A stretch of 64,000 bases of DNA from contig CBDEGZ010000003.1 of the NCBI GenBank assembly GCA_965238175.1, positions 1,696,001-1,760,000 of the forward strand, given 5' to 3'. This document shows, in pieces, positions 1,839-47,223 of the stretch. The notes under the pieces are model-generated. The model worked only from the letters and a program-made list of their open reading frames with translations. It ran no database searches and was not told where the DNA came from. A program made the position numbers and the translations under genes. Position 1 is the first letter of the stretch. Each line of letters starts with the position of its first letter. The DNA comes from Gammaproteobacteria bacterium. GTDB taxonomy: Bacteria; Pseudomonadota; Gammaproteobacteria; CAJXQU01.

Positions 1839-2516
1839 ATGGATCTGCCATTTCGAATTCCTGACATCTTGCTGCCCATTCTTTTTGGGGCGCTCTTATG
1901 GTTTGGCTGTGTGTACTTTTTTATTACGCCGGCACTGACAGAAAGGGTGATCGATATTCATGTGAGAGAAGAATGTGAAGGTCATGCTGATCAGGTTTTT
2001 TGTGATTGCCTGTTTGAGCATTTTTGGGAGCGAGGCGCATCGATAAAAAGCACTTTATTTTTATCAACGTTTTCGCTCTCCGAGCCACGGATCAGTCTGT
2101 TTGATACTAAGCGTAATCCTTATGTGGAATATGTTTCCTATCAGATGAAAAAACCGAAACTAAGAACGGCATGCGACACCACAGGAAATGCTTCACTTCG
2201 TTTAGCCGAAAAACGCGCCACAGAAAAAATAGAAGAGAAACACAAAAAAGAACTGGCTGAGATTGAGAAACAACACAAAGAAAAAATGGCGCAAGAAAAA
2301 CTAAAAAACAGTGAGCATCAAAAAGTACTTGAAGTGGCAAACGCCGTAAAGAATTCCAAAGTAGGACAGTATTTACAAGAAGAAGCAGAGAGAGTGAAAA
2401 GAGCAAATGAGCTTCGTGAACGAACAACAGACGTTGGCCTGAATGTGTGGGAAAGCACCTTGGATTGGGTAGAAAAAAAGCGTCGTCATTATGAGAGGAG
2501 AAATAATTATGAGTAG
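1839..2516 (+). CDS. Membrane-anchored Cys-containing hypothetical protein
   Basis: GGAGG RBS before ATG 1839; N-terminal TM and CDC motif; positional and weak sequence homolog of 42384-42914. Confidence 0.65.
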   Translation: MDLPFRIPDILLPILFGALLWFGCVYFFITPALTERVIDIHVREECEGHADQVFCDCLFEHFWERGASIKSTLFLSTFSLSEPRISLFDTKRNPYVEYVSYQMKKPKLRTACDTTGNASLRLAEKRATEKIEEKHKKELAEIEKQHKEKMAQEKLKNSEHQKVLEVANAVKNSKVGQYLQEEAERVKRANELRERTTDVGLNVWESTLDWVEKKRRHYERRNNYE

Positions 2517-2928
2517 AGAACGCTTTTATTACAAAAGTGATTCGTACCTTGTCACATCAAGAATCTTTAAAACAAAGCGTCGTGGGTATCGAATGCCAGC
2601 TATTACGCAAGTGAGCTTACGCCGTACTCAGTTCTACCTGTTACTTCCCGTTCTTAGTGGCGTTATGAGTCTCGTTCTTTTTTTTGGAGATTTGCTCTAT
2701 CTGCATGAAATATTTTCAGGTGGGTTTGTGGCGTTAGTGCTGGGTGTTGCGTCATGGTCAGTGGGCACCATACATCTGAAGGGTTTTAACGTTGATGGCA
2801 TAGCAACAGTCGGACTGTATTGGAAAATGGCAGAACTTAACGAAGCTCTCAACCATGTTCTTTGGGAGTCGGAGATTCAACAGAAGGGCGTTGGCAACAG
2901 CGGAATGTCATCACGCTCAGATTATTAA
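2509..2928 (+). CDS. Small two-TM membrane protein
   Basis: GAGGAG RBS; homolog of 42916-43296 (VSLRR/VSVRR, DLLY). Confidence 0.7.
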   Translation: MSRERFYYKSDSYLVTSRIFKTKRRGYRMPAITQVSLRRTQFYLLLPVLSGVMSLVLFFGDLLYLHEIFSGGFVALVLGVASWSVGTIHLKGFNVDGIATVGLYWKMAELNEALNHVLWESEIQQKGVGNSGMSSRSDY

Positions 2929-2940
2929 CAGGAGAAGACG

Positions 2941-3255
2941 ATGGAAAACAATAATGACTTAATGAAAGTTACCAACGGCACGATTGTCAAAATCAATCTG
3001 CATTTTTTACAAGCGGTCGTATTCGGTTTGATTGCTTGGTGGTGCTACCCCGAGAGACCCTTTGATATTGGTTGGGGATTGGTGTCGTTCATTTCGGTCT
3101 TGGTGGTGTTAGCGGCTATCGCCAGTGCCATCAAAGACATGACGAGACTCCACCAACGCGAAAAGACCATCAAGGCGTATTTACAACAAGGGGCGCAGCC
3201 CAAAGCCTCCACATTGGCATCGGATGATGCGTTAAAAAAAGCGGGGATGCGGTAA
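2941..3255 (+). CDS. Two-TM protein resembling the detached N-terminal anchor of a VirD4/TraG coupling protein
   Basis: Two TMs followed by ASTLASDDALKKAGM; highly similar to 43286-43606. Confidence 0.7.
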   Translation: MENNNDLMKVTNGTIVKINLHFLQAVVFGLIAWWCYPERPFDIGWGLVSFISVLVVLAAIASAIKDMTRLHQREKTIKAYLQQGAQPKASTLASDDALKKAGMR

Positions 3256-3800
3256 TGACGACTAAAAATAAAAAAAACTCTGACGTGCGCTTTGATGCTG
3301 AACCTTTATCAGAACGTGATGACCATTTTGAAAATGCTGAGAGGGAAGACAGTGACATTGATTGTTTAAATGACGATCTCTCTTTTGTGACGGACGCGAT
3401 TTATTCTGCGTTATTAGATCCTCCATCGAATGCTCTACGCAATCAGTATTGGTGTATTGAACCCCGTACTCTTTTGGATTTCCAGTTATCACAGCATACG
3501 AAGGAGGAAAAACCGAGTCAGTCAACCAAACGACTCCTTGGACTAACCTCGAAAGGTGAACCACTCTTTGCATCAAAGCCTACTCAGCGTTTGTTACTCA
3601 GTGCGGCTGGTGGTGGCAAGACAACCTGTGGTGCATTGCCATCATTTGTGACTGACACCCTTCATCGAGAGTTGTTAACCCACCCGTTTCTTGAGAACGA
3701 TAAAGAACGTCCCCGGCGTATTGAGACTGTCTCTAGAACTGCCTGTTCACCACAGCTATCAGCAGATGATCTATCAAACAAAGGAGATGTTGATCCATGA
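3255..3800 (+). CDS. Hypothetical protein containing VirD4-derived segments, including a duplicated Walker A region
   Basis: Contains LLSAAGGGKTTCGA identical to the downstream VirD4; N-half homologous to 43606-43863. Confidence 0.55.
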   Translation: MTTKNKKNSDVRFDAEPLSERDDHFENAEREDSDIDCLNDDLSFVTDAIYSALLDPPSNALRNQYWCIEPRTLLDFQLSQHTKEEKPSQSTKRLLGLTSKGEPLFASKPTQRLLLSAAGGGKTTCGALPSFVTDTLHRELLTHPFLENDKERPRRIETVSRTACSPQLSADDLSNKGDVDP

Positions 3801-5191
3801 ATAATCCGACCAAACGAATCCTCGGACTGACCTTTGATGGTAAACCCATCTTCGCCCCCAAGCATGCTCATAGTCTGTTACTCAGTGCAGCCGGTGGCGG
3901 TAAGACCACCTGTGGCGCAATGCCCTGGTTGCAATCACTCATTGCCGATACGGATCGTACGATTCTCGTCACCGACAGCAAAGATTGTGAAATGGCGGCA
4001 CAGGCTATTGCGATGTGCCTTGAGGCGGGACGCAAAGTCGCCTACGTCGATAGTTTTGCCAGGCTAGGTAAAGACAATCCTTATCGCATTTCACCGAATC
4101 CGTTTGGTGGTGTGGTCAGTGCGTATCAAAAGAATAATGGCGAGTTGTTGTTTGCCACCGAGAATGCCTGTCATGCTCTGATCGAAGAACCCTCTGATGA
4201 TGCCAAAAATGAATATTGGCGTACTGAGCCTCGCGCCCTGATCGAATTTTGTTTGAACTCGTTGCTGGTGCGTAATATTCGGTTGGCCACACCGGGCGGT
4301 GTTTGGGCATTGCTGGCAAATCCTGAGATGCTACTTGAGGTTGCCGCTATCGAAGCGGAAGAAGGCGATGATGCCATGAAAGCACTCGCCAACCATGTGC
4401 TTGGTATGGCAAAAAACGAAGAGCACTACTCGCAACACCGTGCCGCTGCTACCAAAGCTTTACGTATCTATGCGTCAAATTCAGCCCTGCATCAATCCGG
4501 CGTCGGTGAAGTCATAACCCATGAGAAATTGATTGAGGAGAACTACGTCGTTTTCCTCGGTGGACCTGTTAAATACATGGAACGCCTTGGGGCTGATTAT
4601 GCATTGCAACTGCAAAGCTTTATGGAGGTAGTGTTATCGGGTGAAAGTGGTCCCGTCAGTTTTATTCTGGATGAATTTACCAATGCGCCTTTAAAGGCAT
4701 TGATCTCACAACTGACCACCATGCGCGGCTATGGTGGAACCTGCCACATGATAGCCCAATCCCGCTCAGAAATAGAACGCAAATACGGCAAAAAAGAAAC
4801 CCTGACCATTGATGAGAACTGTGTCATCAAGCAGTGGTTTGGTTTTTCATCGTTTGATGAAGCAGAAAAAGTCAGTCGTGCCATGGGTGAGACCTTGAGT
4901 GTCTCATCCAGCATTGGCGTGAACTCCGACAAGGTGGATTTTTCCGGGAACTACAGTACCGGAAAAGAGCGGCTTTACACGCCAGACATGTTGATGAGCC
5001 TGCCACCGGATGAACAAATTCTTTATGTGAAAGGTGTAGGGTTTATTCATTGTAAAGAAATCGTTCAGAACGAAATTGCACCGAGCTGTACTTACCTGAC
5101 GGATAACCCCATGGAAGGGGAACGCCTGCCACCTAATCCGAAAGTCACATTGCCATTTCCCCAAGAAAAAAATAAGGAGAGAAAATCATGA
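3797..5191 (+). CDS. VirD4/TraG-family type IV coupling ATPase lacking TM anchor
   Basis: ILG..HSLLLSAAGGGKT (Walker A), VTDSKD, FILDEF (Walker B), RGYG, AQS..IERKYG. Confidence 0.85.
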   Translation: MNNPTKRILGLTFDGKPIFAPKHAHSLLLSAAGGGKTTCGAMPWLQSLIADTDRTILVTDSKDCEMAAQAIAMCLEAGRKVAYVDSFARLGKDNPYRISPNPFGGVVSAYQKNNGELLFATENACHALIEEPSDDAKNEYWRTEPRALIEFCLNSLLVRNIRLATPGGVWALLANPEMLLEVAAIEAEEGDDAMKALANHVLGMAKNEEHYSQHRAAATKALRIYASNSALHQSGVGEVITHEKLIEENYVVFLGGPVKYMERLGADYALQLQSFMEVVLSGESGPVSFILDEFTNAPLKALISQLTTMRGYGGTCHMIAQSRSEIERKYGKKETLTIDENCVIKQWFGFSSFDEAEKVSRAMGETLSVSSSIGVNSDKVDFSGNYSTGKERLYTPDMLMSLPPDEQILYVKGVGFIHCKEIVQNEIAPSCTYLTDNPMEGERLPPNPKVTLPFPQEKNKERKS

Positions 5192-5454
5192 AACCCGTTC
5201 GATTTTTACGCGTTAGTTATTTTATCTGGATACTAATCTTATTGGGTCTGTGGTTGTTCACAGTGACCGCTGGTTTGCCCCATTTCCGTTGGTCTTATGA
5301 CTGGCGAGATGATGGACAAGGGTACGATCCACATGCGGAACGTCATTACACGCGCTGCACCTATTTAGGGCCTTATGGGCAGTTCACCCTTCACCCGATG
5401 AATGGGCACTGTGCGTTTATCCGCTTTCAAAAGAAAGCCGGCAGTCAAGACTAA
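5188..5454 (+). CDS. Small membrane-anchored protein with two Cys
   Basis: ATGA overlap with VirD4; near-identical to 45251-45517. Confidence 0.75.
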   Translation: MKPVRFLRVSYFIWILILLGLWLFTVTAGLPHFRWSYDWRDDGQGYDPHAERHYTRCTYLGPYGQFTLHPMNGHCAFIRFQKKAGSQD

Positions 5455-5708
5455 TGCGTCTCGACCAGTTTAAGCCACGGCGCGGGATCGCGATGCTTAA
5501 GTCCGAACTTTTGCACAAGCTCCATCCGGGCAAAGCCTTTGAGGACGTTGAGCATGGTGTCAAGTCGAACACCGTCTTTCAATTGTTGATCGCAGTCACT
5601 CCGTTCCTGAATGTCCAGACCATACGGCTCAATGGCATACCAGAAGCCGTGATAGTCCATCGGTTCCAACCATTCTTCAACGGCTTGTCTGTCTTTAAAT
5701 GTTTTCAT
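5451..5708 (-). CDS. Small conserved hypothetical protein, antisense to the cassette
   Basis: Homolog at 45514-45774 (WLEPMDYxGFWYA); GGAGG RBS. Confidence 0.75.
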   Translation of the reverse strand: MKTFKDRQAVEEWLEPMDYHGFWYAIEPYGLDIQERSDCDQQLKDGVRLDTMLNVLKGFARMELVQKFGLKHRDPAPWLKLVETH

Positions 5709-5770
5709 ACCTCCAAACTAGCATTTTTGGATTCGCCACTTCAAGAAAAATCGACAGGAGGGTTTTCGTC

Positions 5771-6262
5771 ATGGAAATCAACTTCTCAAAAGAACTAAAA
5801 CAAACCTTTAACCTAGCCACTCTGCGAAAAAAAACAAAAGGCCTGAGGTCGCCTAATGATTGGGAAAAGGGTAACAAAATTATGAACCAGTACGAACGTG
5901 AGACGAAAAAACAAACGAAAGCGTATTACGCCGAGTATGACAACCGTGTCAGTAACGTTGTTAAACAATTAATTGATAAGGCGGGTGCCAAAAATCGTGA
6001 TTTTAAACACCGCTGGTTTGGTAATGATAATTTTGACAAAGAGAAGTTGACCCGACAAGCCCATAAAGTCGTGCAGCATGATCATCATCGCCGGATGACA
6101 CGTTTAGAAGAAAACGAGGCCATTGATCTTGGCAAACTCGTTGAAACCATCGAGCAACGCGACAAGTTACGTGAAAAACCACGAAAGGACTTTGAGAAAG
6201 CGGCAGATAGACGCAAAACACAAGAACACCCTCAAACACAGACTCGGCATCGTCGCCGGTAA
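5771..6262 (+). CDS. Hypothetical protein with Arg-rich C-terminus (RHRRR)
   Basis: AGGAGG RBS before ATG 5771; homolog at 45837-46328. Confidence 0.75.
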   Translation: MEINFSKELKQTFNLATLRKKTKGLRSPNDWEKGNKIMNQYERETKKQTKAYYAEYDNRVSNVVKQLIDKAGAKNRDFKHRWFGNDNFDKEKLTRQAHKVVQHDHHRRMTRLEENEAIDLGKLVETIEQRDKLREKPRKDFEKAADRRKTQEHPQTQTRHRRR

Positions 6263-6292
6263 ATAGTTAATCAACATAGGAGAAGAAAGGTT

Positions 6293-6979
6293 ATGAATCA
6301 ACTCTACGATAATCAAGAACGAGAACGCGTTATTAAAGCCCGTGACAGTTATTCAGGAAGACTACTCACCAATAGTCAGTTTGATGAGGCGATGTCGATT
6401 ACCGGCATTATGGAGCGTGAGATCAAAAAAAACGGCACCTTCAAACAAAAGCTCGGTGATTACGCCCAAGCTTATGCCCGTACTGAAAAGTTTGATCACA
6501 TGAAAGCCGAAACCACCATTCGTGAGTTATTCACAGCTCGCACAGGGCAAACCATGAATCAGATGCGCGAAGCATTGATCAAACGCGAAGATACATTGCT
6601 AGGTCGAGAAGGCAAATCCTCACCTGATCAAAAAGCCGTTGAGCCTCAGATTTCAGATTCTGAAAAACAACGCGCTTACCATGCCGCCATGGATGTGGGA
6701 GGCATGATTGAGAAAGGCGACAAGATTGCTTTTTATCGTGCTTATACCCATCAATCATCAGAACTCGCACAAGAGTTAGGGATTACTGAAAACGGGGCAA
6801 AAGTGTTGATGAAAGACCAATTTGAGCAAATAGAAAAGAATGACATTTATAAATGGGGGAAGGAGTTGGAAGAAAAATACTATCGACCTCAAATCAAGGC
6901 AGAGCAGGAAGCGCGGGAAGCCAAGCGAGACAAAAACAATCCGCCTGAGATGAAACAGGCACCGTCTCGTGCAAGATAA
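6293..6979 (+). CDS. Conserved hypothetical protein ending APSRAR
   Basis: Clear homolog at 46357-47040; AGGAG RBS. Confidence 0.8.
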   Translation: MNQLYDNQERERVIKARDSYSGRLLTNSQFDEAMSITGIMEREIKKNGTFKQKLGDYAQAYARTEKFDHMKAETTIRELFTARTGQTMNQMREALIKREDTLLGREGKSSPDQKAVEPQISDSEKQRAYHAAMDVGGMIEKGDKIAFYRAYTHQSSELAQELGITENGAKVLMKDQFEQIEKNDIYKWGKELEEKYYRPQIKAEQEAREAKRDKNNPPEMKQAPSRAR

Positions 6980-7000
6980 GGAGAAAAAAGCCTACCGAAG

Positions 7001-7134
7001 ATAGCGCGAAGATATTAATTTCATCGTTAAAAACGCAATAATCTTACGCGCTATTTTCTTGCTGAAACTAGGAATATATGTCTATAGTGTTCTGCTTATG
7101 TTCTTGCATTGTGTGAGACAAAAAACGTAAGGAG
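7001..7134 (+). promoter_or_regulatory. Conserved hairpin plus putative sigma70 promoter for the recombinase module
   Basis: ATAGCGCGAAGAT...ATCTTACGCGCTAT stem; TTGCTG-N18-TATAGT; 7029-7134 identical to 47093-47198. Confidence 0.55.
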
Positions 7135-7158
7135 GATTTGAGCAAAAAGGAGACAAGA

Positions 7159-7497
7159 ATGAAAGACAATAAGCAGGGTGAAGATATAAAAACGAGTGAG
7201 CGACTTCTTGAGAATAACGCGCTTGGCAAGAGTGATTATTTGCCTTCACTTGTGTTTGATCCTGAACAGTATGTGGATGATTTTGATGAGCTAGATTTAA
7301 GCAATAAACAACATATTGAGTTTCTTCAATCGCTTTGGCACATCATGTCCACCTTTGTTGATATAGGTTGGGGAGTTGAATCTGTCCAGTTATTTTTACC
7401 GGAATTATTTGAAAAAGCTGGGCAGGATTCTGACAAACTGTTAAGACTAGAAGAAATACAAACAATTAAACCATCTGAAGGAGGATATGATGAGTAG
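7159..7497 (+). CDS. Small recombinase-associated protein (candidate directionality factor)
   Basis: Overlaps the recombinase start; homolog at 47224-47532 (LWxIMxxxVDIGxG). Confidence 0.65.
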   Translation: MKDNKQGEDIKTSERLLENNALGKSDYLPSLVFDPEQYVDDFDELDLSNKQHIEFLQSLWHIMSTFVDIGWGVESVQLFLPELFEKAGQDSDKLLRLEEIQTIKPSEGGYDE

Positions 7498-9049
7498 TCC
7501 GTCAAAAGCCCTTATTTATTGTAGAGTTTCAGACACGAAACAAAAGCTTGAAGGCTCGGGTCTTGAAAGCCAGGAATTTCGTTGTCGCCAATATGCTACC
7601 AGTCAATCTTATCAGGTTGAAAAAGTCTTTTTAGATGATATGTCTGGTGGTGGTGATTTTATGAAACGCCCCGGCATGGTGTCCTTGCTACATTATCTTA
7701 ATCAACACAATGAAACGAACTATTTTGTTATCTTTGATGATCTAAAAAGGTTAGCCAGAGATACCATGGCGCATTGGCAATTACGCCATGCCATGATGGA
7801 AGTTGGGGCGAAGGTAGAGTGTTTAAATTATAAGTTTGATGACACACCGGAAGGTGAGTTTGTGGAAACTTTATTTGCCGCGCAAGGCCAATTAGAGCGT
7901 AAGCAAATTGGTCGTCAAACCCGGCAAAAAACCAAAGCCAGGTTAGAAGCAGGCTTTCATGCCTTTATTGCACCGACTGGGTTTAAATATAACAAGACCA
8001 AAACGCAAGGTAAGCTATTGCAACGAGATGAACCGGTAGCTTCGGTGATCGCAGAAATGATGGAAGGTTTTGCTTCGGGTAGATTTCAAACCAAGATGGA
8101 AGCAAAGGTGTTTCTTGAAAATCACTCACTTTACCCGAAAACCGCTAGTTGCAAGATTGGTAATAATCAGATCAATAAAATCTTAATGAACCCACTTTAT
8201 GCAGGTTATATTCAATATAAGCCATGGGGCGTATCTTTGCGCAAAGGGCAACATGATGGCATGGTTAGTTATGAAACCTTTCTTAAAATCCAAGAGCGTT
8301 TAAAAGGTCGTGCGCATGCTCCGGCACGTAAAGATTTAAATGAAGAATTTCCCTTAAGAGGCAGTGTCATTTGCACGTGTGGAAATTGCTTAACTTCGGG
8401 TATGTCAAAAAGCCAGACTGGTAAATATTATCCTTATTATAATTGTCAGAAAAAAGGCTGTGACCATTACGGTAAATCCATTCGGCGTGATGTGATTGAG
8501 GGAGAATTTGAAACTTTACTTGAACAGCTTTCGCCAACTCAAAATGTGATAAAAACCGCGAATAAAATGTTTAAAGCCTTGTGGACTCATCGCGAAACTT
8601 CTCAACAAATTTATAAAAAAACATTAGAGAAACAAACCAAAGTCATTGAAAAGAAAATAAACGATTTACTGGATCGCATTGTTGAAGCTGAATCGTCCGT
8701 AGTGGTGAAAGCTTTTGAGAAAAAGATTCATGGGCTAGAAAATGACCAGCGTGTAATTGAAGAAAAAATGGGCCAATGTGGTCGTCCTTTACGACACTTT
8801 GATGACATGTATCGAACCTCGATGGTGTTTCTTGAGAACCCGCATAAAATATGGGCTTTTGGTGGGTTTGAAGACCGTCGAGCAGTGCTAAAATTGACCT
8901 TGGCAGAGCGATTGGTATATGAGCGAAATAAGGGGTATCGAACCCCTGATTTATCGTTACCTTTCAAGATGTTAGAGGGTGTTTCGGGGGGTAAAAATAA
9001 AATGGTGCCCAGAAGAGGACTTGAACCTCCACGACCCGAAGGTCACTAG
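7487..9049 (+). CDS. Large serine recombinase (resolvase + recombinase + Zn-ribbon/coiled coil)
   Basis: YCRVS catalytic motif, DDLKRLARD, NPLYAGY, C-x-C...YYNC zinc ribbon. Confidence 0.92.
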   Translation: MMSSPSKALIYCRVSDTKQKLEGSGLESQEFRCRQYATSQSYQVEKVFLDDMSGGGDFMKRPGMVSLLHYLNQHNETNYFVIFDDLKRLARDTMAHWQLRHAMMEVGAKVECLNYKFDDTPEGEFVETLFAAQGQLERKQIGRQTRQKTKARLEAGFHAFIAPTGFKYNKTKTQGKLLQRDEPVASVIAEMMEGFASGRFQTKMEAKVFLENHSLYPKTASCKIGNNQINKILMNPLYAGYIQYKPWGVSLRKGQHDGMVSYETFLKIQERLKGRAHAPARKDLNEEFPLRGSVICTCGNCLTSGMSKSQTGKYYPYYNCQKKGCDHYGKSIRRDVIEGEFETLLEQLSPTQNVIKTANKMFKALWTHRETSQQIYKKTLEKQTKVIEKKINDLLDRIVEAESSVVVKAFEKKIHGLENDQRVIEEKMGQCGRPLRHFDDMYRTSMVFLENPHKIWAFGGFEDRRAVLKLTLAERLVYERNKGYRTPDLSLPFKMLEGVSGGKNKMVPRRGLEPPRPEGH

Positions 9050-9089
9050 CACCTGAAGCTAGCGCGTCTACCAATTCCGCCACCTGGGC
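9003..9089 (-). tRNA. tRNA-Leu(CAG)
   Basis: GCCCAGGTGGCGGAATTGGTAGACGCGCTAGCTTCAGGTGCTAG...GGAGGTTCAAGTCCTC TTCTGGGCACCA; 87 nt, long variable arm, encoded CCA. Confidence 0.97.
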
Positions 9090-33239: not shown

Positions 33240-33724
33240 GTTATAAAAATTTTGACTTAGGCAGAGCTTATTATAGTCGAGAATATGAATCGAAAGGTAC
33301 AACACGATATTATCAAGAAGACTAAAGGTATTAAATTACGCTAAAGAAAGTAGCAATATTGCAAAAACCTGACGTTATTTTGAAATTTGTTGAGAAACGT
33401 TTTATACATAGAAACAAGCATATAAAACGCACGAAGGAAAAGCATTAATTAACAATAAGCCCTGATCTTGAAATCATAAACTTTGATTGCCTAAAGCAAT
33501 CGCAATGTCAATACTTTCAGTTGAGCAGAAATTGGAATATGCCAAATTGATGATGAACGAAGGGTATAACAACCCAATTACTAAGGCTGATGCCTCTCGA
33601 TGATTTCAACACATAACAAGTAACTATGGTGTCAAATCCAAGTTAATTGGCAAAATCAGGGTTCCAAAACGCGCGCTGCTTAGAACACCTCCCTCAGGGT
33701 CAGATACTGTCTTAAAGATCAAGT

Positions 33725-34723
<999 letters not shown>

Positions 34724-34740
34724 TTATACTTGAGCTGGAT

Positions 34741-34812
34741 AAATAACGTCATCGCATTCTTGTACTATTCGTGCTATCGCAGTGAAGCCGATGCACAAGA
34801 TACTGTTCGCAT
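34741..34812 (-). ncRNA. Putative bridge RNA donor-binding loop (partial)
   Basis: Minus strand: ACAGTATCT, then hairpin GTGC-ATCG...CGAT-A-GCAC, then AGTACAAG; the left guide equals the element's own right end. Confidence 0.7.
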
Positions 34813-34961
34813 TTAAAGAAGTTATTAAAGAAGTTATTAAAGAAGTTATTAAAGAAGTTATTAAAGAAGTTATTAAAGAAGTTATTAAAGAAGTTATTAA
34901 AGAAGTTATTAAAGAAGTTATTAAAGAAGTTATTAAAGAAGTTATTAAAGAAGTTATTAAA
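34813..34961. repeat. Perfect 12-bp tandem repeat (TTAAAGAAGTTA)x12 plus TTAAA
   Basis: Directly counted; no spacers. Confidence 0.98.
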
Positions 34962-35024
34962 TGTAGAAATTCAGATTTGATCTGACAGTTACCCAATTAT
35001 CAGTAACCGACTGTCAGGTTAAGT

Positions 35025-36059
35025 TTAATTCACAAACTTTTCCTTCCAGATAGCTTGTCCGTCGATGAGTGTTTCCATCGGCGTCCTCCCGCAGCACATT
35101 TTGCCTTGGTGAGTTCGTTGAGTATTGTATTTGAGCAACCATTCGTCAAGGTCGAGTTGCAGTTCATCAATCGATTGGTAAATTTTCTTACGCAAAGCGA
35201 CTTGATAAAACTCATTGAGGATCGTCTTATGGAATCGCTCACAAATACCATTCGTCTGAGGTGATTTGACCTTGGTTTTGGTGTGTTCGATATTGTTCAA
35301 CGCCATATAAAGCTGATAATCATGCTGGTCAGCTCGCCCACAATACTCCGTCCCTCTATCTGTCAAAATGCGCAACATAGGCAAACGTTGTTCTTCGTAG
35401 AATGGGAGGACGCGGTCATTGAGCATGTCAGCTGCCGTAATCGGTGTTTTAGTCGGGTACAGTTTCGCGTGAGCGACCTTGCTGTAAGTATCAACAAACG
35501 TTTGTTGATAAACCCGACCAATGCCTTTGAAAGTACCGACATAGTAAGTATCTTGCGAGCCAAGATAACCAGGGTGTGCCGTCTCTATCTCGCCACAAGC
35601 CTCATCGTCGTCTTTTTTGCGTTCCATCGCCGCGACTTGAGACTCAGTGAGGATCAAGCCTTCACCAGCTACCTTATCAGACAATGCCTTCAGGCGATCT
35701 TTAAAGCAAGCAAGACCATGACGAAGCCAGATACAACGAACGCCACTGGGTGAGACAAATGTTCCCCGTTTGCGCAGCTCGTTACTGGTGCGCGTTTGAC
35801 CATGTGCGGGCTCTTCCAGTGCATACTCGAGCACAACGGTTTCAATAGCCGGGTCGATTCTGTTTTTAAGATTTGGGGTACGCCGATTACGATCAAACAA
35901 GGCTTCTACACCGCCTTCATCAGCCGCTTCTTTGTAGCGATAAAATGTATCTCTGGACAAACCCATCATCTTGCAGGCTTTTGAGACATTGCCGAGTTCT
36001 TCAGCGAGATTGAGTAGACCAACTTTATGTTTTATAACTTTGTCATTAGTATGAATCAT
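35025..36059 (-). CDS. IS481-family DDE transposase
   Basis: HTH (NVSKACKMMGLSRDTFYRYK), SQDT, LTDRGTEY, PQTNGICERF. Confidence 0.95.
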   Translation of the reverse strand: MIHTNDKVIKHKVGLLNLAEELGNVSKACKMMGLSRDTFYRYKEAADEGGVEALFDRNRRTPNLKNRIDPAIETVVLEYALEEPAHGQTRTSNELRKRGTFVSPSGVRCIWLRHGLACFKDRLKALSDKVAGEGLILTESQVAAMERKKDDDEACGEIETAHPGYLGSQDTYYVGTFKGIGRVYQQTFVDTYSKVAHAKLYPTKTPITAADMLNDRVLPFYEEQRLPMLRILTDRGTEYCGRADQHDYQLYMALNNIEHTKTKVKSPQTNGICERFHKTILNEFYQVALRKKIYQSIDELQLDLDEWLLKYNTQRTHQGKMCCGRTPMETLIDGQAIWKEKFVN

Positions 36060-36158
36060 GAGAGTTACCTCTTTGTGTTTTGATGTTTACGTTGCAGTTA
36101 CATCAAAGCGGGTAACTCTCACTAAATCAAGCGTCGCTACGCTCCGCTTGATTTAGTG
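36060..36158 (-). promoter_or_regulatory. Two leader hairpins of IS481, the first covering the RBS
   Basis: GAGAGTTACC...GGTAACTCTC and CACTAAATCAAGCG...CGCTTGATTTAGTG. Confidence 0.6.
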
Positions 36159-36182
36159 ATGTGTCAGATTGGGTCTAAACTT

Positions 36183-39100
36183 CTACAGATAAGGAGGGAT
36201 TTCAAGCGCCTCTTTTGCTTCAAGCATTTTGATAATTTCATGACGTCCTAATTTTCTTGCAATGCCAAGTGCTGTAAATGTAATTCCATCAGATTCAAAA
36301 ATATCGTTCATACTAACTTTTTTGTCTAATAAGCCCCTAACAACATTTTTCAAATTAAAGGTAACTGCGAACATTAAAATAGTTTGTCCGACTGTATTTT
36401 TACAATTGATGCCAACATTTTTTTCCACCAGCTTTAGTGCCACCGTTTCTTGATCATAACGGCAGGCATACATCAGTGTTGTTAAACCTTCCTTATCCTG
36501 AGCATTAAGGTTGGCTTCTTTTTCCACCAGCTTCAGCGCCACCGCTTTTTGATCACTAACGCAGGCCAACATCAATGATGTCCAGCCTTCCTTACTCTGC
36601 GCATTAAGGTTGGCTTCTTTTTCCACCAGCGTTAATGCCACCGTTTCTTGATCATAACCGCAGGCAAACATCAGTGCTGTCCAGCCATCCTTTTTCTGCG
36701 CATTAAGTTTGGCTTCTTTTTCCACCAGCCTCAGTGCTACCGTTTTTTGATCATAACGGCAGGCCAACATCAGTGCCGTCCAGCCATCCTTATCCTGTGC
36801 ACCAAGGTTGGCTTCTTTTTCCACCAGCTTCAGCGCTACCGTTTTTTGATCATAACGGCAGGCCAACATCAGTGCCGTCCAGCCATCCTTCTCCTGCGCA
36901 TCAAGGTTGGCTTCTTTTTCCACTAGCCTCAGTGCTACCGTTTCTTGAGCATGACGGCAGGCAAACATCAGTGCTGTCAAACCATCCTTATTCTGCGCAT
37001 CAAGTTTGGTTTCTTTTTCCACTAGTCTCAGTGCTACCGTTTCTTGATCATGACGGCAGGCAAACATCAGTGCTGTCCATTTATTATTATTTGAGACAGC
37101 ATGAAGATCAGCACCCAGATCTATTAAATAATTGGCTATTGTTGAATTCTTGGCCACTAGAGATAGCATTAGTGCTGTATAATCTCGGCCTTGAGCACTG
37201 TCCCACAGTTCCAACAGAGTAATTAATGATCTCAGAACGGCTTCCTTTTCTTTCCCCCGCAAACCAAAATACTGTATTGATAACCAAATATCTCGCGCTT
37301 CGATTTGCCCTTCTGGTGGGTGATATAAATCTTCTCCATCGAGCCTGTTCAAAAATTTATCTGCAAGCTCATTTTGTTCTTTGTTTTTTACTATCAGATA
37401 TAACTCAAAACAGGTAGTGGATGTGGCCCATTTGTATGCGCTACTTGTAGCAAACTTCTTCGGAGATAGAAACTGATTGAGTAGAGACCAATATTCCTTG
37501 ATGTCAGCATCTTCTTGATCATCATTGGAGAGATTACGGGCCAGACGGGTTGTGAAAGCGATAAACTGACTGTAACGCTTGTCTGTAAAATCGCTGGAGT
37601 TTGCTGCTATGAGCGCAGGCAACCTATCTTCAAAATCAGGAAGACCATTCTCAATTTCTTTCAGAAGTAATAAGAAGTGTGTTTCACCGAGAATGTCCGG
37701 TTCAAAGGCCTTAAGACTGTTTTTGTCATGGCCAGACACCACCGCATTACACAGGGACTTAAAATCTTTATACCCCTCTCTATCAATAACGCGTCTCTGT
37801 TTTTTGGGTACGGCCTCCCTGAGTGTTTTAAAATCAATGCCGCGCCGTGCAGTTGCGGCTGCGATGAAGCAGGCTGCCCACACGCCCCTGTCAGATCCTT
37901 TCATCAGCCATGTTAGCCGGGTCTTGCCTTGTAGATAGTGTTCTATCAAGGCGCGGCGGTTGAGCGTTAAATAAGCTTCTGAGTTTTCACCCTCTTTCCT
38001 ATCATGCCTTATTGCATCTCCAACCAACGCTGCAAAAAGGGGTTGCAGTGCACCTTTCGTTTCTTTGAGATAGTTAAGACCATTCTGTATAACTGGCTCG
38101 TCTATTTTTCCAAATGGATCATCGTCTTCCCTATAGGCGACAGCGCATATAATTTTTGCTAGAAATGTTGCGTCAGCTTCCTCTACCTGAAGTTTCAGGG
38201 GCGTATTTTTGAAGAAAATTCGCTCCTCCATGGAGGCAAAATCTTCAGCCTTTTTGCCTTCAAATCCCCAACGTGGATCTTTGAGAAGGTCGGCCATGCT
38301 ATCGGGTGTTGCATGGTCAAGCAGAAGCAGTCGAACCGGATAGTCAAAATTCGTATTCTCCGCTCTGGCAATAATGTCAGAAATGACCTTGTCATAGCCG
38401 TAGATATAATCAATCGAAATCAGTGTTGGACATTCCGGTGACCAGTTGGCCCAATTAATCGTTGTGTTTGAATTAATATCAATGGCGACCCAGTCATGAT
38501 AGATAGCACGGTTTGCCCAATGGGTTAGCAGGCGTGTTTTCCCTGCACCAGAAGGCCCAACCATGGCCCAGAGCTTAAAATCACCAGGATTATCCACATC
38601 ATAGTCGGCGAACGCATCTAGCTCTGTGATTTCGTCATCACGACCAACAAAGGGGATAAATGTTTCATTGCGAGGGCTGAGCCAATTGTCTTCTGAAGTG
38701 ACTGTTGTATATCGTTCGGTTTTAGTAGATAGTTTTTTAGGTTGAGGCTTCGTTGAACCGATATGAAATTGATTGTCGAGTGCCGGAGTTGCAACACCAT
38801 TTTCGAGAGGCTTTTCTACTATTTCTTCAGTGACATTCTGATCTTTCTTTACGTATTTTTTTAAATTCTTAATATACTTCTCAAGCGTTTCCCTTTCCTC
38901 AAACATACGTAGCGGTAAATGACGCTCGTAGCAAAACTCTAGAAATTGCAGCAAATAATGAGTAACGGAAATATTTTCTTGTACAGCTGCTAGAGCTTGA
39001 AAAATAAGTTTTGGAGAGTTGACTGATACAGATGTTGCCAGAGCAAAATCCTGTATGTACCTATATTTTTTAGGCTTGCGCCCTGGCTTCCCTAGTAGTT

Positions 39101-39410
39101 CAGATAATTTGGTTTCTAAATTACTTCTTGTTGGCATACCTGCGTTGCTATCCAATTCAGTACCGGGAGGCGCAATAAACGTAGCAAAATCTCGCAAATG
39201 AAACCCTTCGAACACTTTTACGATTTTGGTTTCTGATTTTTCAGGCATTTCGATGGTTACTTCTAGCTTCGCTAGAGTTAACCCCGCTGCCTCGACTGAC
39301 AATTCTTTGCAGTACTTCTCAATTATTAATTTTCGACCGCGATTATTCATCGCTTCAAATATTTCTTCCAGTAGTATTTCTGGAGCAGGTTTTAGGTGTG
39401 TTTCTAACAT
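36183..39410 (-). CDS. P-loop NTPase plus C-terminal ankyrin repeats (STAND/NLR-like architecture)
   Basis: FVGRDDEI, GPSGAGKT, LISIDY; about 9 ankyrin repeats (GWTALMxAC); stop codon lies in the IS481 TIR. Confidence 0.85.
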   Translation of the reverse strand: MLETHLKPAPEILLEEIFEAMNNRGRKLIIEKYCKELSVEAAGLTLAKLEVTIEMPEKSETKIVKVFEGFHLRDFATFIAPPGTELDSNAGMPTRSNLETKLSELLGKPGRKPKKYRYIQDFALATSVSVNSPKLIFQALAAVQENISVTHYLLQFLEFCYERHLPLRMFEERETLEKYIKNLKKYVKKDQNVTEEIVEKPLENGVATPALDNQFHIGSTKPQPKKLSTKTERYTTVTSEDNWLSPRNETFIPFVGRDDEITELDAFADYDVDNPGDFKLWAMVGPSGAGKTRLLTHWANRAIYHDWVAIDINSNTTINWANWSPECPTLISIDYIYGYDKVISDIIARAENTNFDYPVRLLLLDHATPDSMADLLKDPRWGFEGKKAEDFASMEERIFFKNTPLKLQVEEADATFLAKIICAVAYREDDDPFGKIDEPVIQNGLNYLKETKGALQPLFAALVGDAIRHDRKEGENSEAYLTLNRRALIEHYLQGKTRLTWLMKGSDRGVWAACFIAAATARRGIDFKTLREAVPKKQRRVIDREGYKDFKSLCNAVVSGHDKNSLKAFEPDILGETHFLLLLKEIENGLPDFEDRLPALIAANSSDFTDKRYSQFIAFTTRLARNLSNDDQEDADIKEYWSLLNQFLSPKKFATSSAYKWATSTTCFELYLIVKNKEQNELADKFLNRLDGEDLYHPPEGQIEARDIWLSIQYFGLRGKEKEAVLRSLITLLELWDSAQGRDYTALMLSLVAKNSTIANYLIDLGADLHAVSNNNKWTALMFACRHDQETVALRLVEKETKLDAQNKDGLTALMFACRHAQETVALRLVEKEANLDAQEKDGWTALMLACRYDQKTVALKLVEKEANLGAQDKDGWTALMLACRYDQKTVALRLVEKEAKLNAQKKDGWTALMFACGYDQETVALTLVEKEANLNAQSKEGWTSLMLACVSDQKAVALKLVEKEANLNAQDKEGLTTLMYACRYDQETVALKLVEKNVGINCKNTVGQTILMFAVTFNLKNVVRGLLDKKVSMNDIFESDGITFTALGIARKLGRHEIIKMLEAKEALEIPPYL
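36400..37090 (-). repeat. About seven near-identical 99-bp ankyrin-coding repeats
   Basis: CATCAGTGC motif recurs every 99 nt; boundaries approximate. Confidence 0.9.
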
Positions 39411-39566
39411 GCCTTATGAATATGAGAAATCTTTTACGTATGTAATTCTGGTGATAATAGCATGTCAAAGACACGATGCATTAGATAAGGAAGAATAGCA
39501 TTCTATGAAATCGCTATTGTCTCTGATAATTTTTAATTTCGGATAGTTGGGTAGACGTAGCTTTTA

Positions 39567-39824
39567 TCAGTAAGGTCCATTTAAGCGTTTGAACCTAGCC
39601 TCCAGTACCGCTTCTTGTTCTTGATATTTAGCAAGTAATTCCTCGGCAAATTCTTCACTATAATAATCAGCGACTGTGGACATTACCATATCATTGAAAA
39701 TCCCAGTCTTGGTTTTATCATCCATCACACTCATTAGTCGCTTGAACATTTCGGCATACGAATTTGGTACATCAGGAATTGTGATGTTTTTAGTAGTCTT
39801 GTAGGACTTTTCTTTTTTCGTCAT
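39567..39824 (-). CDS. Small protein, possible ribbon-helix-helix DNA binder
   Basis: NITIPDVPNSYAEMFKRL resembles an Arc/FitA-type strand-helix start. Confidence 0.5.
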   Translation of the reverse strand: MTKKEKSYKTTKNITIPDVPNSYAEMFKRLMSVMDDKTKTGIFNDMVMSTVADYYSEEFAEELLAKYQEQEAVLEARFKRLNGPY

Positions 39825-39930
39825 CCGTGACGCTCACTTTCATAAATCTTTATCTGACACTATTGCTGCTAAATATCCTTAGCAGTGTTGATATTTTTAT
39901 GTCAACAAAAAAATGGTTGTGTTTTCCGCT

Positions 39931-40070
39931 ATCCGAAAAAAATAGCCAATCCGAAAAAAATAGCCAATCCGAAAAATAAAAAGCCAATCCGAAAAATAAA
40001 AAGTCGATCCGAAAAATAAAAAGTCGATCCGAAACCTTTCCGAAAGCTAAGTAATGTCTTTCCGAAAAAC
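39931..40070. repeat. Iteron-like array of 18-20-bp ATCCGAAAAA-core repeats
   Basis: Units start at 39931, 39949, 39967, 39987, 40007 and 40027, plus two TCCGAAA remnants. Confidence 0.9.
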
Positions 40071-40290
40071 AGATAGGCATTGTTTAGTACATCGAAGTCA
40101 CACATGAATGTACTGAAAACAAAATGAAAAAATTTCTCATCATAATCAGCCTTTTGATCTCCCTTATCGGGATCGTCATCTCTTTTTTTCTGGGTGATCT
40201 TTTATTTTCGATCTCTTTCATCTGGGCTTTGAATAATAGCGTCATCAATTTCTTAGAACAACTGAATAAATAAAACTGAGGACAACGAAG

Positions 40291-40494
40291 ATGAATAAAC
40301 ATGATTTAAACCGTCAGCATTCCTTAAATGAAATAGTGGATGCAATTGAGTGTCACGATGTGAATTACACCGTGGAGCAGATTGACGATTATTTTCTTTG
40401 CTCTGCGGATTTTTGGGAGAGCTTAACCCCGGTAGCTAAGGCCGAGCTGATAGAGCGCTACCCCCACCTTCGTCATGATTTCCCCGAAGAATAA
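40291..40494 (+). CDS. Small acidic hypothetical protein
   Basis: GAGG RBS; 67 aa upstream of the E2 operon. Confidence 0.45.
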   Translation: MNKHDLNRQHSLNEIVDAIECHDVNYTVEQIDDYFLCSADFWESLTPVAKAELIERYPHLRHDFPEE

Positions 40495-40576
40495 TACGCC
40501 TGTTTTTTTAACTATCTATGGTGGTTTCAACAATGACTAAAGAGATAAAACAGTTACACAATAAAAGGAGTTCACA

Positions 40577-41776
40577 ATGAACAAAAGTACAAATCCGGGT
40601 TCATCACAGAACGAGCATTTTAAACTGCGACGGGACAAGAAAAAGAGCATGGGATTTGCGTATATTTTACTCACCATTTTAGGTGTGTTCTCTCCGCTTA
40701 TGTTGGGTATTTCGCTCAGTATTCTTAGCCCCGAAACCGGCCCGCTTGCCAACTTTAAAATCCTGCTTGTTACTTGCAGTGCGGGCCTTGTGACCTACGG
40801 CGTGAATCGTTTAGGCATTGAGCGTGGTGCGCCAGCGGCGGCAATTGGTTATCACTGGACAGGGATTATCAGTGTCATTGCCATCTTACTTGCGGGTAGT
40901 GGTATGTTCATCGGTGCCCATTCCGGCTTAATCTATAAATCCGTCGAAGAGCGCGTCTTGATAGACAATGGTGCCGCCCTCAATGCCTATATCCGCCAGA
41001 TTGATCAATCCACATTGATTATAAAACGGGCTGATCCGGCACTACGGCTAGTGGCCGATGATCTGGCAAGCTACACCCTGTGTGAACAAAGACGTTCTTG
41101 TCTTAGCCAGAATGGTCAAGGCGGTTTTGGCCCGGTGGCGCTTGAGACCAAAAAACGCTCCACCCGCGCAGACGGGATTGCCAATGCCTTTGAGAAAGGC
41201 GATGTTGAGTATAAGCGCCTCTTAAAAGACATTAATCGTCTCAATCGTCGCTATCAGGAAAAGCTGACGGAAACCGATAAAAGTCTGGCAGAAAGACGCG
41301 CGACGCTACAAGGTATCCATAACGAAATCACCCAAGCAACTATGGCCTTGTCGGAAGCGGTGCCGGTGTCTTTATTTCGCACCTACACGCAAGAGTTATT
41401 GGCCGGCGTCAACATTCCCCGTCAGCGAATTGGTACGGATAACCTTAATGCCATCCTGCGTCAACACGGCGAGACGCTTTCCAACATCTTAGATGAGATT
41501 GAGGAGAATACAGCCGTGGCACCGGCTTTCCCAACCCCACCAGGCATGTTGGATACCCTCTACTATATTACCGACTTCTTCGCCTTTGCAGCGGTGATAT
41601 TTATCGCAGAATTAATACTGCCCATCACCCTCTGGGCGCTGAGCTATCAAAGCAAAGAATGGGATGTTCAACAGCGCTTAGATGCACGGCGCCGGGAAGA
41701 AGAAGTGCGTCATTCCAACAAACGTGGCAGACGTTCCCGTCAACGCGCGCTTCCGCAGTCAAAGGGGCAAGCATAA
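40577..41776 (+). CDS. Multi-TM coiled-coil hypothetical protein
   Basis: AAGGAG RBS; three N-terminal TMs, coiled coil, C-terminal TM. Confidence 0.75.
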   Translation: MNKSTNPGSSQNEHFKLRRDKKKSMGFAYILLTILGVFSPLMLGISLSILSPETGPLANFKILLVTCSAGLVTYGVNRLGIERGAPAAAIGYHWTGIISVIAILLAGSGMFIGAHSGLIYKSVEERVLIDNGAALNAYIRQIDQSTLIIKRADPALRLVADDLASYTLCEQRRSCLSQNGQGGFGPVALETKKRSTRADGIANAFEKGDVEYKRLLKDINRLNRRYQEKLTETDKSLAERRATLQGIHNEITQATMALSEAVPVSLFRTYTQELLAGVNIPRQRIGTDNLNAILRQHGETLSNILDEIEENTAVAPAFPTPPGMLDTLYYITDFFAFAAVIFIAELILPITLWALSYQSKEWDVQQRLDARRREEEVRHSNKRGRRSRQRALPQSKGQA

Positions 41777-42381: not shown

Positions 42382-42383
42382 CC

Positions 42384-42914: not shown

Positions 42915-42915
42915 T

Positions 42916-45774: not shown

Positions 45775-45836
45775 CTTTCCACGCTAGCATTTTTGGAAGC
45801 ATCACTTCAAGAAAAATCGTTATGGAGGGATTTAAG

Positions 45837-46328: not shown

Positions 46329-46356
46329 TTAGTTAATCAACATAGGAGAAAAGGTT

Positions 46357-47040: not shown

Positions 47041-47065
47041 GGAGTAAATAAAGTCAGGCTTGATG

Positions 47066-47198: not shown

Positions 47199-47223
47199 AA
47201 ACGCGAACGAAACGGAGACAAGA

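Follow-up and report, generated by a model that had tools for sequence, protein, structure and literature searches.

Introduction

Integrative mobilizable elements (IMEs) have been described as integrated elements that encode an integrase, a relaxase and possibly a coupling protein of their own, and that borrow a type IV secretion system (T4SS) (PMC5704250). In the accessible part of the same source, the 3' ends of tRNA genes are the targets of tyrosine-recombinase IMEs, while site-specific IMEs with serine recombinases disrupt dispensable genes; other partly accessible accounts likewise tie tRNA targets to tyrosine integrases (PMC10484663; Islander, PMC4383910). For Mesorhizobium IMEs, virD4-like type IV coupling protein (T4CP) genes are reported, together with five IMEs carrying serine recombinases, in the accessible part of PMC8627217, which does not describe the architecture presented here. 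The present work concerns a gene cassette that occurs twice, in regions named E1 and E2, within 64,000 nucleotides (nt) of a gammaproteobacterial chromosome (the whole stretch, hereafter the window, is G000:C3:1696001-1760000; the genome has 3.35 Mb in 3 contigs, 40% G+C and 97.7% completeness). The cassette is probably the conserved right-hand module of an IME family that carries its own T4CP and relaxase and borrows its mating channel. Positions are those of the window unless preceded by C3, which denotes the contig.

Mobilizable plasmids such as CloDF13 likewise encode both a relaxase and a coupling protein and rely on a mating pore that is not their own; on the contrary, the elements considered here are integrated, and their T4CP clade has no close plasmid relative. 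As far as the accessible parts of the two sources go, streptococcal (PMC5704250) and Mesorhizobium (PMC8627217) IMEs resemble them in that an integrase lies at one end, a relaxase comes with an accessory protein, a T4CP of their own is encoded and VirB4 and mating-pore genes are lacking, as well as in tandem accretion at tRNA genes and in adaptive cargo. They differ from those known IMEs in that a large serine recombinase, instead of the tyrosine recombinases described in PMC5704250, is here found at a tRNA 3' end, the T4CP lacks a membrane domain and lies within a conserved operon of uncharacterized membrane proteins, and one end of the element holds the relaxase and the other the T4CP. SGI1- and MGI-type islands are mobilizable and need a helper T4SS as well, and SGI1 also encodes pore subunits, TraN, TraG and TraH (accessible part of PMC5704250), a precedent for membrane proteins encoded by an IME. 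However, these islands use a tyrosine integrase at trmE or yicC and have no T4CP of their own, and their extra proteins are recognizable T4SS subunits, whereas those of the present family match nothing. With described large serine recombinases of phages and transposons (TP901-1 integrase; TnpX of Tn4451, accessible part of PMC5704250), the present ones share a Resolvase domain with the YCRVS serine, a Recombinase domain, a zinc ribbon and a very short crossover core; the difference is one of target choice, the present clade being found at the 3' ends of no fewer than 15 different tRNA genes, with its open reading frame (ORF) running into the tRNA.

The IME concept being already known, our best reading is that the novelty lies in a serine recombinase at tRNA genes together with a conserved operon of unassigned membrane proteins. 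The literature searched yielded no account of this family, nor of serine recombinases systematically targeting tRNA 3' ends, a point on which the supplementary tables of PMC8627217 may bear.

Results and Discussion

Two Copies of a Ten-Gene Cassette

ORF maps of the window display ten genes in identical order in E1 (2491-9049) and E2 (42874-49105). Lengths are given in amino acids (aa), and percentages refer to protein identity between copies; gene names are those used throughout, and counts refer to 80 related loci of other genomes, introduced below.

Cassette of E1 and its target:
2491-2928, plus strand: p145, two membrane helices, remote member of the p140 family (hhalign; DUF6232 weak, below cut-off)
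2941-3255, plus: p104, 104 aa, two membrane helices (hydropathy), directly upstream of the T4CP gene; 82% to E2
3255-3800, plus: p181, p85-like N-terminal half plus a partial duplicate of the T4CP N-terminus (tblastn)
3797-5191, plus: T4CP of the VirD4/TraG family, 464 aa, no membrane helix (Pfam PF02534, PF12696, PF10412)
5188-5454, plus: p88, one membrane helix; 94% to the E2 copy; 75/80 loci
5451-5708, minus: 85-aa protein (third-position substitutions); 62/80 loci
5699-6262, plus: p187, basic, start uncertain, last ~110 aa common to E2 p117 (52% over 109 aa); 64/80 loci
6293-6979, plus: p228, conserved and soluble; 77% to the E2 copy; 66/80 loci
7138-7497, plus: p119, small and acidic, overlapping the recombinase start (paralogues; cluster in 46 related loci)
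7487-9049, plus: large serine recombinase, 520 aa (Pfam Resolvase and Recombinase; YCRVS motif)
9003-9089, minus: tRNA-Leu(CAG), with the right attachment site (attR) of E1 at its 3' end, ~9000-9008 (ARAGORN, Rfam, empty site in genome G002)

Cassette of E2, with the genes preceding it:
40577-42914, plus: u399 (40577-41776), u240 (41659-42381, start uncertain) and u176 (42384-42914), at the positions fixed in related loci
42874-43863, plus: p140 and p106, with two membrane helices each, and p85 (ORFs, hydropathy; p140 in 51/80 loci)
43860-45254, plus: T4CP, 464 aa, 98% to E1 (Pfam, tblastn)
45251-45517, plus: p88, 94% to the E1 copy
45514-45774, minus: 86-aa gene, 51% to the E1 copy
45975-46328, 46357-47040 and 47173-47532, plus: p117, p227 and p119 (ORFs, tblastn)
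47426-49105, plus: large serine recombinase, ORF of 559 aa (Resolvase, Zn_ribbon_recom, YCRVS)
49035-49080, minus: 3' fragment of tRNA-Arg(TCG), 46 nt, 100% identical to the 3' end of the intact tRNA-Arg(TCG)

At the DNA level, 2929-3640, 3809-5766 and 6235-7166 of E1 align with 43274-47231 of E2 at 79-91% identity. Protein identity descends from the T4CP (98%) and p88 (94%) through p104/p106 (82%) and p228/p227 (77%) to p85 and residues 1-86 of p181 (59%), p187/p117 (52%), the minus-strand 85/86-aa ORFs (51%), the recombinases (46%) and p119 (36%). The leading pair, p145 (2491-2928) and p140 (42874-43296), gave no BLAST match; p145 matches the p140 family profile (hhalign 96.9%, E 1.5e-10). 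Chance is excluded as an explanation of the repeat, as 80 loci of other genomes show this gene order too, and comparison with those loci indicates that E2 holds the canonical version of the module.

A preliminary description of this DNA had proposed ten genes occurring twice in the same order, each copy with a VirD4-type ATPase and neither VirB4 nor relaxase within the shared block. The ORFs, the DNA and protein identities and the 80 loci bear out the repeat, both 464-aa proteins pass three T4CP Pfam models, and neither Pfam nor genome profile scans found relaxase or VirB4 domains in the block shared by E1 and E2. The proposed location of both copies next to different tRNAs stands for E1, which adjoins the only complete tRNA in the window, tRNA-Leu(CAG) at 9003-9089 on the minus strand (ARAGORN, Rfam), while E2 abuts just the 46-nt fragment of tRNA-Arg(TCG).

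A 1.2-kb tract of the T4CP gene (3890-5089 versus 43953-45152) is 97-100% identical between E1 and E2, amid flanks of 75-88% and a remainder of 45-65%. Such near-identity surrounded by diverged sequence implies that E1 and E2 recombined recently, and points to gene conversion between the co-resident T4CP genes.

E1 and E3 as Integrated Elements with a Relaxase

The E1-type T4CP was not found in six other genomes of the same genus. In the closest genome of that genus, G002, with 86-88% DNA identity to the present one, the site is empty: the sequences left of C3:1674527 and right of C3:1704999 lie only 54 nt apart, so that E1 is an insertion. By alignment, the two junctions fall at C3:1674561 and C3:1705003, for a length of 30,443 bp, with a core, AAAA-GGTG, common to both ends and overlapping the CCA end of tRNA-Leu(CAG). 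The tRNA gene is left intact, and the recombinase ORF takes its last ~13 codons from it, its homology to paralogues stopping at 9007. An inverted-repeat scan at the left junction yielded two pairs of 8-9 nt.

The left 21 kb of E1 extend beyond the window, as the preliminary description had cautioned (its similar reservation about E2, whose left end is lost beside insertion sequence (IS) copies, was also right). They begin with a NikA/MobC-like gene, followed by that of an 825-aa relaxase-helicase in which a PF03432 Relaxase domain is fused to AAA_30 (RecD-like helicase), and then by an IS. E1 therefore exhibits all the testable defining features of an IME, namely site-specific integration, an integrase at one end of the element, a relaxase and no mating-pore genes, and it lacks the VirB4-family ATPase and mating-pore operon that would make it an integrative and conjugative element (ICE). 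The elements are classed as IMEs on these grounds, and E1 is one of 30.4 kb at the CCA end of tRNA-Leu(CAG).

Another element of the same genome, E3 (~19 kb, at tRNA-Met), encodes a MobC-like protein, a relaxase, a small resolvase, ArdA, a 100-aa two-helix protein, a diverged T4CP, two small proteins, a p119-like protein and the recombinase. Its relaxase is 46% identical to the N-terminal part of the E1 one. A recombinase C-terminal remnant is found immediately left of its MobC gene, and E3 is thereby another tandem array. In total, the genome contains four T4CP genes and three PF03432 relaxases.

According to Pfam, the cargo of E1 comprises an 8xMP membrane protein, a methyltransferase, ArdA, a small resolvase and a cyclic-oligonucleotide-based antiphage signalling system (CBASS) set. 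The latter consists of consecutive genes at C3:1688150-1694018 for a Cap15 receptor domain, a DncV-like CD-NTase plus C-terminal domain, Prok-E2_B/ThiF and Prok-JAB; judged by its genes (CD-NTase, receptor effector, Cap2- and Cap3-like), the operon looks complete. A segment of ~2 kb with ArdA and two other genes is shared, at 96-100% protein identity, between E1 (C3:1682318-1684310) and island X, an unlike island to the right of E2 (C3:1771328-1773185, corresponding to 75328-77185), and cargo thus shared appears to have been exchanged between island types.

Immediately left of its cassette E1 carries:
1-916, plus: 3' part of the gene of a 407-aa protein, four membrane helices predicted (ORF maps; start at C3:1695693, 307 nt before the window)
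913-2516, plus: two one-helix membrane proteins, of 299 aa (913-1812) and 229 aa (1827-2516) (hydropathy)

The 407-aa protein belongs to no Pfam family and is unrelated to the canonical u399 family (hhalign 0.2%). The 299- and 229-aa proteins occupy the places of E2 u240 and u176, without any Pfam family or tblastn match in the 80 related loci, the hhalign value of the 229-aa one against the u176 profile being 20%. None of these three leftmost membrane proteins has a match among the 80 loci. Within p181, tblastn assigns residues 1-86 to E2 p85 and residues 88-142 to the start of the T4CP gene (Walker A region), a fusion that looks like a recombination scar.

The Family in Other Genomes

Relatives of the T4CP number in the hundreds (426-497 aa, 56-82% identity), and those with names are from Alphaproteobacteria. 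An alignment-based scan with the T4CP provided the 80 related loci, many of them cut by contig ends; a scan of genome contigs with the single T4CP protein had given 44 pattern matches with no relative among them. The loci are mostly from marine Hyphomicrobiales and Rhodobacterales, and include two metagenome-assembled genomes (MAGs) labelled Gammaproteobacteria/Pseudomonadota, with T4CPs of 75-76% identity. Upon tblastn, the T4CP was detected in all 80 loci, p88 in 75, the recombinase in 68, p228 in 66, p187 in 64, the minus-strand gene in 62, p140 in 51, u176 in 50, p104 and u399 in 42 each, and u240 in 11. Gene positions are fixed relative to the T4CP, while the content left of u399 varies. 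Measured in nt from the T4CP start, the order is as follows.

Upstream: u399 -2500, u240 -1800, u176 -1200, p140 -700, p104 -330
Downstream: p88 +1400, minus-strand gene ~+1900 (3' end of the match), p187 +1900
Further downstream: p228 +2500, p119 +3200, recombinase +3700

In 54 of the 64 loci that include the recombinase C-terminus, recombinase homology gives way, at a constant offset, to the start of a convergent tRNA; the other 10 comprise three at a contig end, two with a tRNA just past the distance limit and five without a tRNA. The tRNAs targeted carry 15 anticodons, for Thr, Arg, Leu, Ser and Ala. In locus L067 a MobC-relaxase pair follows ~240 nt past the recombinase, which matches the distance from left junction to MobC in E1 and indicates, from the arrangement of the genes, that these are tandem elements.

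The relaxase accompanies the module well beyond E1 and E3. PF03432 was detected in 29 of 30 host genomes, and in 24 of the 30 the relaxase lies on the T4CP contig, on the same strand and 3.9-41 kb upstream, the pairing having been read by eye from two tables. The six unpaired hosts have short upstream contig space or a relaxase on another contig, and one lacks any relaxase. Fourteen elements were fetched from relaxase to recombinase, and the scan covered the 87 ORFs of 305 aa or more among 134 with 200 aa or more. A relaxase domain is present in 14/14. The remaining common families are RecD-like helicase domains, restriction-modification of type I and MmeI type, ArdC, DncV-like CD-NTase and AAA_13; none of the 25 commonest of the 115 Pfam families matched by these long ORFs is a pore family. 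By gene content, the family appears to act as a vehicle for defence islands.

These complete relatives also bear on whether the cassettes might be decayed ICE fragments, remaining after deletion of a T4SS operon. E2, plainly decayed, without a relaxase and with IS copies at its left, would suit such an origin, as would the IS and the duplicated gene fragment of E1. However, pore families are missing from the commonest domains of 14/14 relatives taken from relaxase to recombinase, none of three VirB4 models matches inside any element in the 30 genomes (the nearest match on the same contig being 430 kb off), and independent loss in many lineages with the rest conserved would be unlikely. The preliminary description had named relatives with both a VirB operon and a relaxase as the outcome that would reduce the cassettes to ordinary ICE fragments: the relaxase is indeed there (14/14 elements, 24/30 hosts), and VirB4 is not inside the elements. 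Considering that complete relatives also lack pore genes, the cassettes are not regarded as ICE fragments, and such decay is very unlikely to explain them. Likewise, the pairing of coupling protein and integrase without mating-pore genes, as first proposed, extends to complete relatives, but the lack of a relaxase proposed with it does not hold for E1, E3 or 24 of the 30 hosts.

The Coupling Protein and Its Small Neighbours

In both E1 and E2 the T4CP matches PF02534 (T4SS-DNA_transf) at 88-90 bits (cut-off 20.1; E1 88), PF12696 (TraG-D_C) and PF10412 (TrwB_AAD_bind), and in the PDB its profile also finds Cag5, which is the H. pylori homologue of VirD4 (E 1.2e-8). Walker motifs are GGGKTT at residue 33 and ILDEF at residue 290 (E1). 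Hydropathy reveals no N-terminal transmembrane anchor in the 464 aa, and the Pfam match begins at profile position 40. A two-helix membrane protein is encoded just upstream of the T4CP in E1, E2, E3 (the 100-aa protein, counterpart of p104) and 42/80 loci, p104 lying ~300 nt upstream of the T4CP in related loci; p104 may thus be the membrane anchor of the T4CP, separately encoded. A TrbD identity for its E2 counterpart p106 was considered and dropped, its E value of 0.039 being at chance level.

One to four helices are predicted in u399, u240, u176, p140 and p88. AlphaFold models of u399 and u176 are all-helical, with pLDDT values of 90.9 and 85.2, and neither has a PDB fold match at E <= 0.001 (best Foldseek E values 0.049 and 4.6), both being unlike VirB6 and VirB8. 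On the contrary to these membrane proteins, p228, p187 and the minus-strand protein are soluble; they gave no family match in Pfam, NCBIfam or PHROGs, nor did p228 in the PDB. For the small proteins as a whole, the best matches in those three family databases were DUF6232 (E 0.0011), phrog_10099 (0.0019), DUF6674 (0.0025) and TrbD (0.039), none above chance, and PDB profile searches with p228 and u399 returned chance matches only (E >= 0.017). In the ESM Atlas u399 is placed in nameless clusters of its own, and the nearest named families were DUF4407 for u399 (0.77) and DUF3849 for p228 (0.85), below the evidence level of the tool.

The minus-strand gene at 5451-5708, already put forward in the preliminary description, is real: over 45 non-independent sequence pairs, 1325 substitutions fall at third codon positions, 459 at first and 337 at second, and the same pattern led to rejection of an overlapping plus-strand ORF (5454-5798) as a gene. 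The sizes of p187/p117 and p228, too small and with no HUH-type motif by eye, speak against a hidden relaxase, the true relaxases being at the far end. Complex prediction for the T4CP with p228 scored 0.37 (runs 0.07, 0.50 and 0.37), the best of 3 controls reaching 0.01, with contact agreement of at least 78% and partner pLDDT of at least 80. The mark applied is reached by 58 of 80 solved complexes and by 2 of 110 mismatched pairs, and its range at scores of 0.60 or below holds 7 of the 80 solved complexes and both passing mismatches. From these models p228 is a possible, weakly indicated, partner of the T4CP, to be taken as a lead only.

Could the module serve something other than DNA transfer, such as defence, exclusion or protein export, with the island moving by its recombinase and other transfer means? 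A cargo dominated by defence systems, a T4CP without membrane domain and the lack of a helper in most hosts would fit. Nonetheless, a MobC-relaxase pair accompanies the module in E1, E3 and 24/30 hosts, the ATPase of the module passes three T4CP Pfam models with Walker motifs intact, and ArdA and ArdC, typical leading-region genes of conjugative DNA, are frequent. Such a function is regarded as highly improbable, and the IME reading is retained.

Mating Pore and Helper

In the genome of the window no match was found to PF03135 (VirB4), PF11130 (TraC), PF03743 (TrbI/VirB10) or TIGR03744, nor to PF11393 (IcmL), a model without positive control, and PF12846 (AAA_10) matched only below cut-off. 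TIGR03744 gave true matches in other genomes, so that the model works. Among the 30 hosts, PF03135 was detected in 8 and TIGR03744 in 2 others (same ORFs as PF11130). Two claims of the preliminary description find no support: a T4SS 'encoded elsewhere', no VirB4, TraC, TrbI or IcmL having been found in this genome, and substrates supplied by the element itself, nothing pointing to protein substrates. Mobilization by a helper T4SS would then depend on another source, and the hosts of the closest T4CPs (75-76%) provide a lead: an ICEclc/PFGI-1-type VirB4 (TIGR03744 above cut-off) is found elsewhere in their genomes (G041:C22:98033-100702 and G042:C52), and this may be the helper type of the sub-clade to which the T4CP of the window belongs.

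Several observations weigh against an IME family with a borrowed channel: (i) 20/30 hosts have no VirB4 by three models, many of them being MAGs, which tend to lose plasmids, and the present genome holds four T4CP genes and three relaxases yet no detectable T4SS, so that a helper is usually not at hand; (ii) the T4CP clade has no close relative on 72,556 plasmids, all 220 matches being below 30% identity, and hence no cognate T4SS type can be named; (iii) six conserved membrane proteins are without a role in the standard IME model; (iv) transfer and excision as a circle are predicted from gene content, no excision joint or empty site being readable in the two public runs that include the stretch, as Logan contigs of a metagenome from one sample of one study, which break at the tRNA and cannot show rare joints (two further runs contain tRNA-like pieces only, and no RNA run is listed), and no oriT was located; and (v) E1 is non-canonical, with three membrane-protein genes replaced by unrelated ones, an IS after the relaxase gene and p181 with its T4CP duplicate, and may itself be immobile.

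The first three of these observations bear on a self-transmissible element, in which u399, u240, u176, p140, p104 and p88, together with a T4CP hexamer acting as an FtsK/HerA-like DNA pump, would form a VirB4-independent DNA conduit without a helper. In agreement with it, six small membrane proteins stand in fixed order by the T4CP in 40-75 of 80 loci at 25-60% identity, analogous ones are retained in E1 and E3 despite lost sequence similarity, VirB4 is missing from 20/30 hosts and from the genome of the window, the T4CP clade is not on plasmids, and the confident u399 and u176 models match no solved fold. On the contrary, the module contains no outer-membrane- or pilus-like component, its membrane proteins are unlike any T4SS part, plasmid-borne helpers would escape notice in the many hosts that are MAGs, and IMEs elsewhere also encode extra pore-modifying or exclusion proteins. 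To our knowledge, no Gram-negative single-stranded DNA conjugation system without a VirB4-family ATPase is known, which counts against such a conduit as well. Actinomycete integrative and conjugative elements (AICEs) are the only precedent for VirB4-free transfer, by a single FtsK-like pump, a likeness that bears on this minority reading only; they move double-stranded DNA by TraB in Gram-positive mycelia and without a relaxase, whereas a relaxase and a VirD4-type ATPase are found here. A VirB4-independent conduit is hence considered unlikely, and it is a shade less credible that the operon is a complete transfer machine rendering the islands self-transmissible by a previously unknown minimal form of Gram-negative conjugation. 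The probable reading remains an IME family that carries T4CP and relaxase and borrows its channel.

The Serine Recombinase and Its tRNA Targets

Pfam assigns to the E1 recombinase Resolvase (84 bits), Recombinase (26 bits) and, below the cut-off of 25.3, Zn_ribbon_recom (21.4 bits), and to the E2 one Resolvase (94.7 bits) and Zn_ribbon_recom (36.8 bits), both proteins containing the YCRVS serine motif. The nearest solved structure is that of TP901-1 integrase (E 3e-6). The E2 recombinase likely starts at the Met at 47525, its overlap with p119 then being short as in E1.

Six recombinase paralogues are present in the genome, each adjoining a tRNA 3' end: Leu-CAA, Lys-TTT (partial copy), Met-CAT, Leu-CAG (E1), Arg-TCG (E2, tRNA fragment only) and Arg-ACG (partial copy). 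Truncated paralogues lie at C3:713342-714460 (tRNA-Lys) and C3:2527010-2527957 (tRNA-Arg(ACG)). At tRNA-Leu(CAA), C3:184355-186292 contains a full-length recombinase and a p119-like gene with no T4CP or relaxase match nearby, and the integration module appears from this gene content also to serve another kind of island. The p119 gene precedes the recombinase gene and overlaps its start, has paralogues before four recombinase copies of the genome, including T4CP-less islands, and its cluster is found directly upstream of the recombinase in 46 related loci; by its position p119 would be a candidate recombinase directionality or accessory factor.

As a separate observation on tRNA genes, contig C1 (10,967 bp), which carries tRNA-Leu(GAG), stands out from the chromosome (40% G+C) with its 55.8% G+C, and is possibly foreign DNA or mis-binned.

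E2 and the Neighbouring Island X

Synteny with G002 stops at 33241, past flaG. From there to the first canonical E2 gene (33241-40577) stand an IS110-type transposase, an IS with five genomic copies and a 1075-aa ankyrin-repeat NTPase, and on the right a second island, X, begins.

33725-34711, minus: IS110-family transposase (Pfam)
35025-36059, minus: IS with an rve-type transposase of 344 aa (Pfam; five copies identical at the protein level)
49081-64000: left part of island X (Pfam), which as a whole runs to window position 85868 = C3:1781868 (36.8 kb)

Both IS occupy the place expected for the left part of E2, and the profile scan found no relaxase in the E2 region. The rve-type copies are located in E1, in the E2 region, near E3 (two) and near C3:2553491, and their identity suggests that this IS moved recently.

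On either side of island X the 46-nt 3' end of tRNA-Arg(TCG) is present as a direct repeat, and the tyrosine integrase of X (C3:1780670-1781824) adjoins the intact tRNA-Arg(TCG), C3 c[1781869-1781945], 36.8 kb to the right of the fragment. The island further encodes a NikA-like protein (57896-58246, minus), a relaxase (56349-57899, minus), a 510-aa T4CP (60711-62243, plus), an N-terminally methylated (pilin-like) protein and an AAA_13 ATPase, and no VirB4 was found in it. From these genes X appears to be a second, unrelated mobilizable island in tandem with E2. The insertion of this tyrosine-integrase island behind E2 is the reason why E2 abuts only a tRNA-Arg(TCG) fragment. E2 is a decayed copy of the element at tRNA-Arg(TCG), having lost its relaxase end and been pushed off the tRNA by a second island. 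The simplest history would be that E2 entered tRNA-Arg, X then entered the same tRNA and displaced the old end, and the left end of E2 was lost.

Repeat proteins of eukaryotic type are also observed in this variable region, namely the 1075-aa ankyrin-repeat NTPase (36183-39410, minus) and two WD40 proteins beside a formylglycine-generating-enzyme-like gene (49762-51453, 51446-52249 and 52758-54650, all minus).

Proposed Mechanism and Implications

A complete element, of which E1 is an example, starts at its left attachment site (attL) with a MobC/NikA-like relaxosome protein and a MobA/VirD2-type relaxase, with or without a RecD-like helicase, continues with a variable cargo of 10-35 kb in which genes against phages and restriction prevail, and ends with 4-5 small membrane proteins, the helix-less VirD4-type ATPase, four small proteins and the large serine recombinase, attR being at the tRNA 3' end. 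The recombinase, possibly aided by p119, would excise the element as a circle and re-insert it at a tRNA end. The relaxase would nick an origin of transfer (oriT) near the MobC gene, and the T4CP, anchored by p104, would deliver the relaxase-DNA complex to the T4SS of a co-resident or incoming conjugative element. Protection of the incoming DNA would fall to ArdA or ArdC, and the host may draw a selective benefit from the defence cargo.

What might have seemed an oddity of one genome becomes a defined and widespread element family. A serine recombinase clade diversified over at least 15 tRNA genes bears on how such recombinases choose their sites, and may supply natural recombinases with conserved tRNA genes as targets. 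The conserved membrane-protein operon, tied to a T4CP with a separate anchor, would either adapt foreign T4SSs or have another role, and a genome with four T4CP genes, three relaxases and no T4SS is a case for how such elements persist without a resident helper. With these islands, CBASS, restriction systems of type I and MmeI type and anti-restriction genes are carried through marine Alpha- and Gammaproteobacteria, which adds a mobilizable, non-phage vehicle for defence systems.

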